A stretch of 64,000 bases of DNA from an uncultured Lachnospira sp. (GCA_949002095.1 CARJMT010000007.1:6024-70023), one strand, 5' to 3'; counted from the first letter of the stretch, positions 2,144 to 62,411 are shown. Translations and numbers: made by a program. Notes: generated by a model not told the origin, from the letters alone.

Positions 2144-2172
2144 TTGATTTTAATTAAAAAATATTATATAAT
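2144..2172 (+). promoter_or_regulatory. conserved phage promoter (TTGATT-17-TATAAT)
   Basis: TTGATT 2144-2149, 17 nt spacer, TATAAT 2167-2172, conserved downstream leader ATTTATATAAGAAAGAAAGAGAGG. Confidence 0.7.
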
Positions 2173-2204
2173 ATTTATATAAGAAAGAAAGAGAGGTAAT
2201 AATA

Positions 2205-2387
2205 ATGGAATGTAGCAATGGACTGTGCCCTTACAACTACGATGGGTATTGTAACAATGATGAAGATGCTTACTATGAGTGTGAAGACCAGTTCTGGACT
2301 GCGGATGAAGAAGATGAAGAGGAAGACGTAGAGGACTATGCATTCGCTGATTATGACTGCGAGTGCGGATTATTTGGAGACGAATAG
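2205..2387 (+). CDS. small acidic Cys-rich protein
   Basis: 60 aa, D/E-rich with CxxC-like pairs, RBS AGAGAGG. Confidence 0.5.
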   Translation: MECSNGLCPYNYDGYCNNDEDAYYECEDQFWTADEEDEEEDVEDYAFADYDCECGLFGDE

Positions 2388-2399
2388 GAGGTCTTAAGT

Positions 2400-2597
2400 A
2401 TGGCAAGGGATAGGGAAAGAGCTTGTAAGTATTATATTTGTGAAGGAAACTGCTCCAAAGGGCGGGAAGGTACTTTCAGAAAACAGTGTCAGACCTGTAA
2501 GAAGTACGACCCTGTACCTGGCGGACAGCCGGCTCGTAAGGACTTGAGACGAGAGAAAAGAGAAAAATATCTGAAAGATAGGAGGAACTGGGCATGA
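2400..2597 (+). CDS. small basic zinc-ribbon-like protein
   Basis: CKYYICEGNC...CQTCKK cysteine pattern, GGAGG RBS. Confidence 0.5.
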   Translation: MARDRERACKYYICEGNCSKGREGTFRKQCQTCKKYDPVPGGQPARKDLRREKREKYLKDRRNWA

Positions 2598-2950
2598 ATT
2601 CCCCGTTATTTAATCCATTTTGGTTTTATTTAATTGAATTATTCGGGAGGTTTGGAATAGCTTTTGTTATAATTGGGCTGTTTGCTGTGATTGGCAGCGG
2701 CATTGCAATATTCATCTGTATGATGGAAGGCGATGACATTCCTAAATGTGTCAAGAAAATCATTATTGCAGGAGCCATTGTTCTTGCTCTTGGTGGACTT
2801 ATCCCATCAAAAGAGACCTGCTACAAGATGGTTGTCGCATCATATGTAACGCCTGCGAATATCGAAAGCGTAAAAGGCGAAGCAACAGATTTGGTTGACT
2901 ATATCATCGAAAAAATTGACGAGTTAAATGATAATGAGGAGAGCGATTAA
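2594..2950 (+). CDS. hypothetical membrane protein (2 TM)
   Basis: two long hydrophobic segments; ATGA overlap with upstream. Confidence 0.55.
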   Translation: MNSPLFNPFWFYLIELFGRFGIAFVIIGLFAVIGSGIAIFICMMEGDDIPKCVKKIIIAGAIVLALGGLIPSKETCYKMVVASYVTPANIESVKGEATDLVDYIIEKIDELNDNEESD

Positions 2951-2970
2951 AGCTCTCCTTTTACTTTTTA
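2938..2970 (+). terminator. rho-independent terminator overlapping stop codon
   Basis: GGAGAGC..GCTCTCC 7 bp stem then TTTTACTTTTT. Confidence 0.5.
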
Positions 2971-2988
2971 AAAAAATTTTGTTATAAT
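2960..2988 (+). promoter_or_regulatory. conserved phage promoter (weak -35 TTTACT, TGTTATAAT)
   Basis: TATAAT 2983-2988 with TGT extension, same leader motif as other copies. Confidence 0.6.
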
Positions 2989-3012
2989 ATTTATAGAAAA
3001 GATAAAGAGAGG

Positions 3013-3288
3013 TTGATGAATATGGAAAGATTATATGACAGATTGGTAAATGCAATGGAAGATGCTGGCTTCTATATTGATGGAAGCTTCGGCAAGTACG
3101 GAAATGATGAAGACTGTGAGATTGATGCTTTTGTTGAGGATTTCCTCTTAAAGAACGGGGCAACTGCAGTTCGTACAGATATCACAGATGCTTTTGACTC
3201 TCCTGGCTATGACTGCTATGTTCTATCTGCGGCTTGGATTGACGCGGAAGGTTTACACCTTGAAACTTGGCTGTTGGAAATGTATTAA
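3013..3288 (+). CDS. hypothetical protein
   Basis: 91 aa ORF, GAGAGG RBS. Confidence 0.5.
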   Translation: MMNMERLYDRLVNAMEDAGFYIDGSFGKYGNDEDCEIDAFVEDFLLKNGATAVRTDITDAFDSPGYDCYVLSAAWIDAEGLHLETWLLEMY

Positions 3289-3299
3289 GGAGGGTAAAG

Positions 3300-59682: not shown

Positions 59683-59753
59683 ATAATCATCAAGAGATGA
59701 GATAATCTCTAAAAGATACTATAATATATTATTTAAACAAGGAGAATAAAACA

Positions 59754-60029
59754 ATGGCATTAAAGGAAAATTCAAGAAAAGTATTTGATTATGTAAAGAG
59801 TCTGAACGGAGCAAACGTTACTGCGGCAGATATCGCAGAGGCTACAGGACTTGAGGTTCGTAGCGTAAATGGTATCGTTACTTCTGCCTTCCAGAAGAAG
59901 GGCTTAATGGAAAGAATCCCTGCTGAGATTGAGTTGGATGATGGCACACATAAGCCGGTTAAGTTTATCAAGCTAACAGCTGAAGGTGAAGCTTTCGACC
60001 CAGATGCTCCAGAACCTGAGAAGGCTTAA
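59754..60029 (+). CDS. hypothetical protein
   Basis: AAGGAGAATAAAAC RBS, 91 aa. Confidence 0.55.
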   Translation: MALKENSRKVFDYVKSLNGANVTAADIAEATGLEVRSVNGIVTSAFQKKGLMERIPAEIELDDGTHKPVKFIKLTAEGEAFDPDAPEPEKA

Positions 60030-60046
60030 TATACACTTGAATACTT

Positions 60047-60074
60047 GCGGGGCAATTTGCCCCGCATTTTTTTG
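60047..60074 (+). terminator. rho-independent terminator
   Basis: GCGGGGCAA..TTGCCCCGC hairpin then ATTTTTTTG. Confidence 0.75.
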
Positions 60075-60086
60075 TAGGTAAATAAT

Positions 60087-61001
60087 ATGATATTTGAGAT
60101 ATTATTTTTTATACTTGCCCTGTGTGTCTTAGGTGCAGGTATAAAATTTTATATAGACGCGAATAAAATAAAAATTTCTAAGCAAATTGAACAATCAGAG
60201 TTTGAAAAGCTTCAAGAAGAATATGATAAACTTTGCAAGCAGAGAACAGAGCTAATTTTAGCTATGGAAAAAGAAAAACAATATTTTAAAGAAGTGTATG
60301 AAAAAGAAAAAAATAATATTTCTGAACAAATAAATTTGTATAAACAAAACACTTCTTATGCTAGCGAACAATATCTATATGCTTTGGAACAAAATTACAT
60401 TAAAGCTGAACAAGAACATGACGCAAAGATGGATAAGTTAGCCGCAGAAAGAGAGCTATGTGAAGAAGAACTCAATAAGATGCGGGAAGCGCTCAGTGCT
60501 GGCGTTCAAGCCAACCTCCGCGAAATGGAAAAAGAACAAAACATTCAGTTTTATAAATTAAGTATTTCAGATAAAGATTTACAAGATGTAACAAAGTTAG
60601 AAGAAGTTAAATTATCGCTACATCAACCTGTTATTTTAAGTAAACTTATATGGTCTACTTATTTCCAAAAGCAAACTACTGAAATGTGTAATCGTATCTT
60701 AGGAACTAAGAAGATTTGTGGTATTTATAAAATCACTAATCTAAAGACACAACAATGCTATATCGGTCAATCTGTAGATGTAGCTCAAAGATGGAAAGAC
60801 CATTGCAAATGCGGGCTTGGAATCGAAGCTTCCGCGACAAATAAGCTTTATAATTCAATGCAGAAATATGGTATCTATTCTTTCTCTTTTGAACTTATGG
60901 AAGAATGTCCAAGAGAGCAATTAAATGAGAAAGAAAAGTTTTGGATAGAATTGTATCAATCTAATATATACGGTTTTAATTCAACAAAAGGAAATGGTTA
61001 A
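60087..61001 (+). CDS. membrane-anchored coiled-coil protein with C-terminal GIY-YIG nuclease domain
   Basis: N-terminal TM, long coiled coil, then GIYKITN...YIGQSVDVAQRWKDH...E GIY-YIG core. Confidence 0.6.
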   Translation: MIFEILFFILALCVLGAGIKFYIDANKIKISKQIEQSEFEKLQEEYDKLCKQRTELILAMEKEKQYFKEVYEKEKNNISEQINLYKQNTSYASEQYLYALEQNYIKAEQEHDAKMDKLAAERELCEEELNKMREALSAGVQANLREMEKEQNIQFYKLSISDKDLQDVTKLEEVKLSLHQPVILSKLIWSTYFQKQTTEMCNRILGTKKICGIYKITNLKTQQCYIGQSVDVAQRWKDHCKCGLGIEASATNKLYNSMQKYGIYSFSFELMEECPREQLNEKEKFWIELYQSNIYGFNSTKGNG

Positions 61002-61013
61002 GGAGATAAAAGG

Positions 61014-61916
61014 ATGAGATTTGAGAATACGCAAGTAATGAACTTTGGTAATGCACTGCGTGGTATGAGAAATCCAAAAAACAGCTGGGATAAAAGTGAT
61101 AGTTTTTTTGGTTTGATTAACCCAGATGATACAGAGGTAGATTATGTAGTAACTGAAGCATGGTTACAGAAAAGACACCCTGATAAAGATATATATGGGT
61201 ATGAATATGATGATAAGGAATTAAACGAAGAGTTTGATACTATCGACCAATGGCTATTACAGAACGGGGTTCTTCAGCAAGATAACAAGGATTGGGCTAC
61301 TTGCGCGGAAGTCGCATTAATTGGACCAGATGATATGCGATTAGCACAGCAGCTTATTAAAGCAGGACCTGAACACCGCAAGTTTATGCGTCAGATTTTT
61401 GTGTCTGTTGATATCACAGCTCCGCTCTATTGGTGGAAAGAGTTTGATACTTATAAAGTAGGAACTGTTGCTAATAGTACATCTACAATGCATAAGTTAG
61501 CCTCAAAACCTATCACTCTTGATTGTTTTGAAGTTGATGATTACGTAGATAGCTTAGATTGGACTGGAGTTCCTATTGGAGAGTGTGTAAGTTGTTATGA
61601 TAGTAAGAAAACAATTAATCGCTTAATAGATATGCTTGAGGGGCTTCGTTTAAGATATCTTGAGACTAAGGACGTTCGTTATTGGAAAGAATTGGTTCGT
61701 TGGTTACCAGAAGGATGGTTACAAACAAGAACTGTGACTCTCAATTATGAGAACCTTTTGGCTATCTGCTCTAAGAGCCAACGTCGCAATCATAAATTAA
61801 ATGAGTGGTCTGGCAAACATACGCCTGTGGAACAGAGCTTTATTCAGTGGGCAAGAACGCTTCCTTACGCGCAGGAGTTCATCTTTATTGACGAGGAAGA
61901 TAAACAAGATTTGTAG
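61014..61916 (+). CDS. hypothetical protein
   Basis: AAGGAGATAAAAGG RBS, 300 aa. Confidence 0.6.
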   Translation: MRFENTQVMNFGNALRGMRNPKNSWDKSDSFFGLINPDDTEVDYVVTEAWLQKRHPDKDIYGYEYDDKELNEEFDTIDQWLLQNGVLQQDNKDWATCAEVALIGPDDMRLAQQLIKAGPEHRKFMRQIFVSVDITAPLYWWKEFDTYKVGTVANSTSTMHKLASKPITLDCFEVDDYVDSLDWTGVPIGECVSCYDSKKTINRLIDMLEGLRLRYLETKDVRYWKELVRWLPEGWLQTRTVTLNYENLLAICSKSQRRNHKLNEWSGKHTPVEQSFIQWARTLPYAQEFIFIDEEDKQDL

Positions 61917-62002
61917 TAAAATAGTTGATTTACTAATTAAAAAATGTTATAATATAAATATAAGAAATAAAGAATTATATTATAAGGATGGTAATTAGTA
62001 AA

Positions 62003-62386
62003 ATGACAAAGAAAGAAGCTTTTATTAAAATGGTTGAGGACCTTATGGACCCGCTGGATATAAGCGAGTTAAAGGAAGATGATGAAACAAGAATGGCGGT
62101 TGAATTTTTTGAAGAATTGAAGTCTGGAAAATCAACCGCAGGTCCAAAGCCAGAGATAACTGAGAATGGTGCGAAAATTCTCAAGTATATGCAAGAGAAT
62201 TATCAGAAATATAACAATGTGTTTAAGTCCAAAGAAATTGGCGAAGGATTATTTATATCTTCTCGTTCTGTGTCTGGGTCAATGAAGAAACTTATCACAG
62301 AAGGTTTCGTTAATAAAATTGGAACTGACCCTGTGGCATATGAAATCTCACAAAAAGGGATTGATAAGGATTTAAGTAATATTTGA
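62003..62386 (+). CDS. hypothetical protein
   Basis: ATG 62003 (MTKKEAF); ORF track start 61988 is a non-ATG codon. Confidence 0.5.
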   Translation: MTKKEAFIKMVEDLMDPLDISELKEDDETRMAVEFFEELKSGKSTAGPKPEITENGAKILKYMQENYQKYNNVFKSKEIGEGLFISSRSVSGSMKKLITEGFVNKIGTDPVAYEISQKGIDKDLSNI

Positions 62387-62411
62387 CACATTCAAAAATT
62401 TTTGATATAAT
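62383..62411 (+). promoter_or_regulatory. promoter (consensus TTGACA -35)
   Basis: TTGACA 62383-62388, 17 nt, TATAAT 62406-62411. Confidence 0.65.

Follow-up and report, generated by a model that had tools for sequence, protein, structure and literature searches.

The DNA analysed here, hereafter called the window, is a stretch of 64,000 nucleotides (nt) from an uncultured Lachnospira sp. assembly (GCA_949002095.1, CARJMT010000007.1:6024-70023), in which one promoter cassette recurs 34 times between genes of a phage. The window is part of an uncultured large phage of roughly 140 kb, of virulent type, that probably infects gut Clostridia. A host in the Oscillospirales (Bacillota) is likely because the endolysin encoded in the window is similar to endolysins from Oscillospiraceae and Faecalibacterium phages, being 51-68% identical to those of Acutalibacter, Faecalibacterium and Ruminococcus phages, and the Firmicutes host proposed in the initial annotation of this DNA is plausible on the same ground. 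A megablast search with the first 20 kb of the window against 50,697 phage records gave only tRNA-sized matches to known phages. Relatives were found in IMG/VR as contigs of ~130-175 kb. The closest were IMGVR_UViG_3300045988_085326 (139 kb; loci L011, L014 and L032 below belong to this relative) and _106526, with ~80-89% nucleotide identity to the window.

Open reading frames (ORFs) lie almost entirely on the + strand, the exception being a short - strand block at 20.4-22.2 kb, and 29-31 transfer RNA (tRNA) genes are found at 6.6-18.8 kb. The products include both type II topoisomerase subunits (T4-type), DNA ligase, RNA ligase, RNase H and PhoH, together with a CCA-type nucleotidyltransferase, a tRNA-His guanylyltransferase, PARG, phosphoesterases, a holin-like protein and the endolysin. 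There are no structural genes in the window.

The recurring promoter cassette reported in the initial annotation proved to be real. The exact pattern TTGATT-N17-TATAAT matched 15 times in the window, always on the + strand, against 0.02 matches expected from dinucleotide-preserving shuffles. A scan of the window with a position weight matrix made from the clear cassette copies gave 34 + strand sites, which included every site previously reported. The exact 17-nt spacing claimed for 21 sites was confirmed, with one position corrected from 9502 to 9501. The 13 sites that had been placed only approximately were located within ~20 nt, at 1406, 2960, 25027, 27261, 28266, 36517, 37592, 42983, 46156, 48555, 52440, 53788 and 61925. 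The matrix scan of the window revealed no independent - strand cassette, since the few - strand scores came from these AT-rich and partly palindromic sites read as their reverse complements. A general repeat finder, run independently, returned families of 24-28 copies.

We examined the composition of the cassettes. The spacer is 17 nt long in all 34. The -10 hexamer is TATAAT in 30 copies and TAAAAT in four, and the extended -10 TG (at -15/-14, the -16 region typical of Gram-positive promoters) is present in 28/34. The -35 hexamers are TTGATT (18 copies), TTTATT (8), TTTACT (1), TTGAAA (3), TTGACA (3) and TTGATA (1). Thus 25 of the 34 have a TTGA-type -35 that resembles TTGACA, and the nine TTTATT or TTTACT copies all have a TG-extended or perfect -10. 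The region from -35 to -10 holds 32.8 bits of information, the spacer alone holding 16.2 bits; the 16 nt past the -10 hold 12.1 bits, and background levels are reached further downstream. The conserved part of the cassette extends from the -35 hexamer to ~16 nt beyond the -10, and a variable polypurine tract comes next. Many spacers are near-perfect T5-6/A5-7 palindromes, for example TTTTTATAAAAA.

The copies fall into three sub-types. The majority, sub-type (a), read TTGATTTT... and have a T-tract/A-tract spacer. Sub-type (b) reads TTTATTTT (TTTACT once), and a GC-rich hairpin precedes eight of its nine copies, the exception being the cassette at 36517 (P36517). Sub-type (c), in which the start region has diverged, reads TTGAMA..TTCAAAAATTTTTGATATAAT and occurs at 3671, 9501, 52440, 59439, 59654 and 62383. 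These copies are mostly in the lower-GC part of the window past ~48 kb (48000-64000), where the GC content falls from ~40-45% to 34-37%. Cassettes at 48000-64000 belong to the weaker or diverged variants, in which the -35 is TTGACA or TTGAAA and the start region departs from the consensus, and compared with the locus L031 their conservation was no better than that of their own flanks. They may represent a different regulatory class.

The -10 is followed on its 3' side by a stretch made up only of A and T (A-T-W-T-A-T-A-T-A-A), where 88% of copies have A at position 7. This A, ~7 nt past the -10, is likely to be the transcription start. The leader had been described as near-identical among copies, which was an overstatement: the exact sequence ATTTATATAAG was found in 9/34 copies and AGAGAGG within 45 nt in 7/34, and it is the degenerate form ATWTAYATRA that is shared more widely (21/34). 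Counted from the -10, positions +9 to +24 have a purine fraction of 0.8 or more. The mean purine content of the leader tract was 0.78, higher than in random 25-mers (0.56; p = 6e-18) and than in the sequence upstream of internal genes (0.66; p = 1e-5). The cassettes at 9725 and 14456 are near-identical over 57 nt.

All 34 cassettes are intergenic, lie on the + strand, and are co-oriented with and upstream of + strand genes or tRNAs. Nearly all gaps of at least 55 nt between protein-coding genes contain a cassette. With heuristic gene calls and the end of each unit set by the next cassette, a unit holds 0-11 features, with a median of 3; only eight of the 34 units have one feature, and the unit at 9501 has none. 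The single-gene transcription units of the initial annotation are therefore not what these cassettes delimit. The cargo of the units consists mostly of unannotated small ORFs, tRNAs and accessory metabolism, with tRNAs, RNA repair, NAD+ salvage, PARG, topoisomerase II and ligase among the accessory functions, and many units differ from those of the closest relative. The unit of the cassette at 42983 (P42983; 43048-46146, +) encodes an isochorismatase-type amidase, NAMPT, an adenylyltransferase/nucleotidyltransferase and NAD synthase, lies between two terminators and is apparently a complete NAD+ salvage or reconstitution operon. NAD+ salvage operons are used by phages as counter-defence against NAD+-depleting immunity.

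The distance from the end of the -10 to the start of the first feature, a start codon or a tRNA, ranges from 22 to 257 nt. First genes have a purine-only Shine-Dalgarno sequence (AGAGAGG, AAAGGAG) inside the polypurine leader, and internal genes have the canonical AAGGAGG. The units at 9725, 10246, 14456, 14838 and 16033 are tRNA-only or tRNA-first, with no Shine-Dalgarno sequence and a non-coding leader of 95-177 nt. Since these five units carry the same conserved start region and polypurine tract, the leader of the cassette cannot be a translation signal only, and we ruled out that explanation. The standardised Shine-Dalgarno region that had been proposed for the leader survives only as the purine-only tendency of first genes; given the scarcity of AGAGAGG, the variable distance to the start, the five tRNA units and the gene-less unit at 9501, it is not a fixed part of the cassette.

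The clean intrinsic terminators noticed at the ends of units were also recovered. In ten cassettes, at 1406, 2960, 27261, 28266, 33300, 37592, 39723, 42983, 46156 and 48555, a hairpin reaches 0-6 nt into the -35 with its 3' arm and T-tract, the terminal hairpin having a free energy of about -14 to -20; we refer to these as composite terminator-promoters. In two more, at 30416 and 52440, the hairpin ends 29-31 nt upstream of the -35, and a convincing stem-loop is absent at 22/34 cassettes. The window has ~18 clean + strand terminators, and 12 of them are followed by a cassette within 75 nt. The composite hairpins are probably bidirectional because several also score as - strand terminators. The coordinates of all cassettes are listed in Table 1.

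Table 1. Promoter cassettes in the window, with the features of each and the genes that follow (CDS, coding sequence; SD, Shine-Dalgarno sequence).
Type	Positions	Strand	Features
composite	1376..1450	+	hairpin 1376-1411 over -35 TTTATT at 1406; TATAAT; before CDS 1484-2140
cassette	2144..2188	+	TTGATT; 3 small ORFs 2205-2950; AGAGAGG SD
composite	2936..3004	+	hairpin 2936-2960; -35 TTTACT at 2960; 3 ORFs
variant	3671..3715	+	TTGAAA..TTCAAAAATTTTTGATATAAT; 2 ORFs
cassette	5069..5113	+	TTGATT; CDS 5129-5611
cassette	5608..5652	+	11 features up to next cassette (ORFs, tRNAs; 5675-8977)
cassette	8990..9034	+	ORF 9042-9368 with cREC_REC domain
variant	9501..9545	+	TTGAAA; ~195 nt without ORF or tRNA until next cassette
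cassette	9725..9769	+	leader of 177 nt, then tRNA-Asn
cassette	10246..10290	+	-10 TAAAAT; tRNA unit
cassette	11505..11549	+	ORF 11564-11809 and 9 tRNAs; ORF absent in L011, break right after cassette
cassette	14456..14500	+	tRNA-Ile
cassette	14838..14882	+	-10 TAAAAT; 6 tRNAs
cassette	16033..16077	+	5 tRNAs
cassette	17168..17212	+	ORF, tRNAs, DUF2828/DUF7788 gene
cassette	22429..22473	+	PARG, phosphatase and nucleotidyltransferase genes
cassette	25027..25071	+	unit including SPFH/flotillin gene
composite	27237..27305	+	hairpin 27237-27263 over -35 TTTATT (27261); next 730 nt absent in L032
composite	28236..28310	+	hairpin 28236-28271; -35 at 28266; left partner of L032 chimeric cassette
cassette	30416..30460	+	one 57-aa ORF; terminator scan: T-run 74 nt upstream of -35 (position 30342)
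cassette	30666..30710	+	837-aa major-vault-protein homologue; right partner of L032 and L031 chimeric cassettes
composite	33270..33344	+	hairpin 33270-33301; -35 TTGATT at 33300; TAAAAT; 9-gene unit
cassette	36517..36561	+	TTTATT; starts promoter-genes-terminator unit (~36.5-37.56 kb) absent in L032
composite	37566..37636	+	hairpin 37566-37597; -35 at 37592; 6-gene unit
composite	39698..39767	+	hairpin end 39726; -35 TTGATT at 39723; 4-gene unit with RNA ligase
composite	42958..43027	+	hairpin 42958-42985; -35 at 42983; four-gene NAD+ salvage operon
composite	46133..46200	+	hairpin 46133-46158; -35 at 46156; TAAAAT; 7-gene unit
composite	48529..48599	+	hairpin end 48554; -35 TTTATT at 48555; leader diverged; PhoH unit
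weaker variant	52440..52484	+	TTGACA, without TG; terminator hairpin end 29 nt upstream of -35
weaker variant	53788..53832	+	TTGATA; both topoisomerase II subunits and DNA ligase
variant	59439..59483	+	TTGAAA..TTCAAAAATTTTTGATATAAT
variant	59654..59698	+	TTGACA; matrix score 12.7, lowest
cassette	61925..61969	+	TTGATT
variant	62383..62427	+	TTGACA..TTCAAAAATTTTTGATATAAT

The conservation of the cassettes was investigated in the relatives. In the closest relative, 12 sites have orthologous sequence on both sides; over these the cassette was 96.6% identical (514/532), and the flanks were 83.4% (upstream) and 86.7% (downstream) identical. In contig 106526, the cassettes were 96.8% identical versus 84-87% for the flanks, and in a relative of 75% identity the values were 94% versus 75-77%. 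The same consensus was found in contigs whose homologue of the vault-protein gene product is 57-97% identical and whose local GC content is 28-44%. In the relative 085326, same-strand cassettes run on for at least 10 kb past both ends of the region equivalent to the window. A broad degenerate pattern scan of viral contigs was too unspecific for copy counts per genome.

The start region differs by lineage, with the variants ATTTATATAA, ATATATATAA, ATATATAGAAA and ATATATACAAT, each of which is uniform within its genome; this indicates concerted evolution or co-evolution with the transcription machinery. The locus L049 (4807-21828) of a more distant relative, which encodes a vault-protein homologue of 54% identity, is without the cassette. 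Another motif, TAATAAATAATATTAAAAA, is repeated there immediately ahead of ribosome sites, among them that of the orthologous vault-protein gene, which suggests that this lineage uses a different promoter type.

Comparison with the relatives revealed exchanges within the cassettes. In L032, window positions 28316-30658 are missing and a single chimeric cassette remains in their place, with the terminator, -35 and spacer from the cassette at 28266 (P28266) and the -10, start region and leader from the cassette at 30666 (P30666). The relative 085326 also lacks ~36.5-37.56 kb of the window, a complete unit of promoter, two genes and terminator, and the neighbours of this unit are adjacent in L032. 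Further insertions or replacements relative to 085326 start 5-25 nt past the cassettes at 11505, 27261 and 33300. In a second relative, L031, the order of two blocks is the reverse of that in the window, and their junction is a chimeric cassette with P36517 upstream and P30666 downstream. The crossover points of the L032 and L031 chimeric cassettes differ. As read from their sequences, the two junctions are signatures of homologous exchange between dispersed direct repeats.

We consider it likely that the cassettes are early or constitutive promoters of the host housekeeping sigma factor, many of them fused to a terminator, and that as a side effect they provide portable homology for module exchange. 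The sequence architecture, the strand and intergenic placement, the conservation and the chimeric junctions behind this reading were observed directly. The host RNA polymerase with its housekeeping sigma factor (sigma-A/sigma-70 type) would read all 34 cassettes in a large virulent phage, through a -35 of TTGATT or TTTATT that a 17-bp T-tract/A-tract spacer separates from an extended -10 (TG-n-TATAAT), with the AT-only sequence ATWTATATAAG as discriminator and start region. The RNA would open with an unstructured polypurine tract, which in protein-coding units would merge into a purine-only Shine-Dalgarno sequence (AGAGAGG or AAGGAG) 15-50 nt from the 5' end. Such a leader would load ribosomes near the 5' end and might also shield the transcript from 5' decay. 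Insulation would be provided by a bidirectional hairpin terminator, the T-tract of which would also serve as the -35 in ten cassettes; since the T-tract doubles in this way, one ~70-bp module would close one unit and open the next. As conserved direct repeats of 45 to ~70 bp, the cassettes would in addition allow crossovers that delete, insert and reorder promoter-gene modules among related phages. We infer sigma-A recognition, the start site, the early timing and the stabilising and translational roles of the leader from these features.

Several points weigh against this reading. Promoter activity, the start site and the timing are all deduced from sequence. The spacer and start region are conserved far beyond the needs of sigma-A, and therefore an extra phage factor may be involved. 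Among ~60 window proteins searched (most ORFs of at least 87 aa), many of them unannotated, we found neither a sigma factor nor a modifier of RNA polymerase nor a DNA-binding regulator. The endolysin and holin genes lie inside the cassette-bearing region, so that early expression cannot be assumed for every unit. Moreover, breaks in flank concordance, where one flank is conserved and the other is not, were found at 7/20 cassettes compared with 8/33 internal gene starts used as controls, with no significant enrichment (Fisher p = 0.30). Raw BLAST segment ends fell at cassettes in 6/41 cases in the closest relative, against 6.6% expected, which is marginal (p = 0.05); in L025 and L031 they gave p = 0.003-0.004, values that are confounded by local divergence. 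Because breakpoint enrichment was not significant, we do not claim cassettes as preferred breakpoints and claim only that crossovers occurred within them. The cassettes are one route of module exchange and not the dominant one. The initial annotation had raised the possibility that the repeats drive recombination or gene shuffling, and this was upheld by the chimeric cassettes at the L032 and L031 junctions but not by breakpoint frequency.

A broader proposal is that the cassette goes beyond a strong promoter of host type and is a standardised exchangeable module of ~140-175 kb phages of gut or rumen Clostridia, a clade not described before, that a phage-encoded factor reads its palindromic T/A spacer and conserved start region, and that recombination, possibly through excised circles, is the main route for swapping the counter-defence arsenal of these phages (tRNAs, RNA repair, NAD+ salvage, PARG). 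We regard this as conceivable but doubtful. If it is true, the mechanism of the promoter-early stem-loop (PeSL) cassettes would extend from T4-like phages of Gram-negatives to an unrelated lineage of Gram-positive phages.

A phage-encoded factor, such as a dedicated sigma factor, an appropriator or an early shut-off repressor, could read or co-control the cassettes through the palindromic spacer or the ATTTATATAAGAAA start region, and the sigma-A-like hexamers would then make up just a part of the signal. The 16.2 bits in the spacer and the 12.1 bits in the 16 nt after the -10 are well above what sigma-A needs, many spacers are near-perfect palindromes, the start-region consensus varies by lineage and is uniform per genome, and L049 places an unrelated repeated motif before an orthologous gene. 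However, the hexamers, the 17-nt spacing and the TG already amount to a near-perfect housekeeping promoter, and the window proteins searched included no candidate sigma factor or regulator. The early promoters of T4 and T5 are also conserved beyond their hexamers, although the host polymerase that reads them is unmodified. We consider control by a phage factor, the main rival reading and one that is compatible with the data, unlikely.

That the repeats are primarily mobile or recombinogenic DNA, such as targets of a site-specific recombinase or elements like miniature inverted-repeat transposable elements (MITEs), with a secondary resemblance to promoters, is very improbable: the chimeric cassettes at rearrangement junctions, the near-identical 57-nt copies at 9725 and 14456 and the homogeneous consensus per genome would fit, but the cassettes keep a single orientation with the genes at 22-257 nt before start codons or tRNAs, have no terminal inverted repeats or target duplications, show differing crossover points as expected for homologous and not site-specific exchange, are not significantly enriched for breakpoints relative to other gene starts, and occur in a window in which no recombinase or transposase was found among the proteins searched. 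A MITE or transposon-like element in particular was ruled out by the uniform orientation, the lack of inverted ends and the lack of a transposase among the proteins searched.

The closest described system is that of the PeSL cassettes, and the window cassettes belong to this known kind, the phage early promoter/terminator cassettes. PeSL cassettes have been reported in the T4-like phages phi1/RB49, PST/T4 and nt-1/KVP40 (Arbiol et al. 2010, PMC2839356; Comeau et al. 2014, PMC4122927). In these genomes, ~50 near-identical sigma-70 early promoters (about 52 in phi1) with stem-loop terminators, which can overlap the -35, stand before accessory genes or ORFans and have a Shine-Dalgarno sequence at their end, and cassette-bounded insertions and deletions between close relatives leave a single chimeric cassette (PMC2839356, PMC4122927). 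Excised mini-circles with one cassette and its gene or genes count among the marks of the PeSL system. The window is similar in its 34 near-identical sigma-70-type promoters in 64 kb, its terminators, which overlap the -35 in ten copies, its accessory genes and its chimeric junctions. It differs in that the host is probably a Gram-positive member of the Clostridia and the phage has no detectable nucleotide similarity to sequenced phages. The stem-loop is found at only 10-12 of the 34 window cassettes and always upstream of or overlapping the -35, and the cassettes drive tRNAs and multi-gene metabolic operons and not mainly single ORFans. Unlike PeSL cassettes, they have an AT start region that is conserved and is followed by a polypurine leader, and breakpoint enrichment in the window was not significant.

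Early-promoter arrays are also known from the Herelleviridae, in SPO1's module for host takeover (PMC6873191) and among the Kayvirus early promoters (PMC6445280), where they are restricted to the ~12 kb terminal redundancy. These too are large virulent phages of Firmicutes, with clustered short operons that have a strong sigma-A promoter and ribosome site and carry early or accessory genes. In contrast, the window cassettes extend over more than 64 kb, in the relative they go on past both ends for 10 kb or more, and we detected no sequence relationship. The leader can be compared with the polypurine 5' mRNA stabiliser of SP82 and the Bacillus Stab-SD elements, to the extent that these are described in the account citing them (Hue, Cohen and Bechhofer 1995, cited in PMC3997798). 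The resemblance lies in a purine-only, Shine-Dalgarno-like tract with which early phage transcripts begin in a Firmicutes host, and by analogy the tract may have a stabilising role here, lengthening mRNA half-life through ribosome binding or a block to RNase J1; relative to the elements as so described, the difference is that the same polypurine start also precedes untranslated tRNA-only units. Lambdoid morons are promoter-gene-terminator insertions between genes that are adjacent in relatives; they are usually single, occur in temperate phages and have idiosyncratic promoters. The unit at ~36.5-37.56 kb is moron-like in having its own promoter and terminator and in being absent from L032, where its neighbours adjoin. 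It is unlike a moron in that its genome is of virulent type and has one standard cassette for all units.

Other features of the window were also recorded. The 837-aa phage protein encoded at 30746-33259 (+) contains the shoulder and repeat domains of Major Vault Protein (PF11978, 7e-22; PF17795, 3e-8), and homologues of it occur in the huge uncultured phages LR756500/1/3 and in 24 IMG/VR contigs. Near its gene lie those of an SPFH/flotillin protein (25681-27231), a DUF2828/DUF7788 'RNA-binding' protein (18819-20315) and a microbial PARG (22485-23255), a set that we take to be a loose echo of eukaryotic vault components. A second intergenic repeat of ~70 nt is present in three + strand copies, at 20400-20472, 30352-30423 and 49899-49969, each at the 3' end of a unit and adjoining an intrinsic terminator. 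Its consensus is TCTGCTCGGrGCGC...TTTCAAAATCAAAAAsTGCTTTTGGAAATTTTTCA.CCAATTTT, and the first and third copies, but not the second, have an intact TCTGCTCGG part. The sole - strand block (20471-22140) contains three ORFs, one of 307 aa with weak tail-fibre-like matches; it has negative GC skew and no cassette, and convergent terminators at 20320-20400 delimit it.

In the tRNA block (6459-18760), the spacers between tRNAs are unusually long (80-470 nt) and without a convincing ORF. Some of them, for example 6869-7000, as well as the leader after P14456, contain T-arm-like GGTTCGAnTCC motifs and acceptor-like ends, and these spacers may be non-canonical tRNAs or structured RNAs. The leaders after P9501, P14456 and P14838, and more loosely that after P16033, share a TTACAG(C/T)A-like motif ~25-35 nt past the -10. 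No non-tRNA Rfam family reached the gathering score in the long pre-tRNA leaders or the tRNA spacers. The gene-less interval 9501-9724 may encode a small RNA.

The promoter cassettes are well defined and functionally interpretable; what is new is their presence in large Bacillota phages of a clade not described before, and they are not a new kind of regulatory element. They map the promoters and terminators of this uncultured clade and reveal its operons, such as the four-gene NAD+ salvage unit. As a compact and apparently very strong promoter-terminator-leader module, the cassette is a candidate expression part for Clostridia and other Bacillota. Recombination through composite cassettes has so far been described only in T4-like phages, and its occurrence here suggests a convergent strategy by which large virulent phages shuffle their accessory genes.

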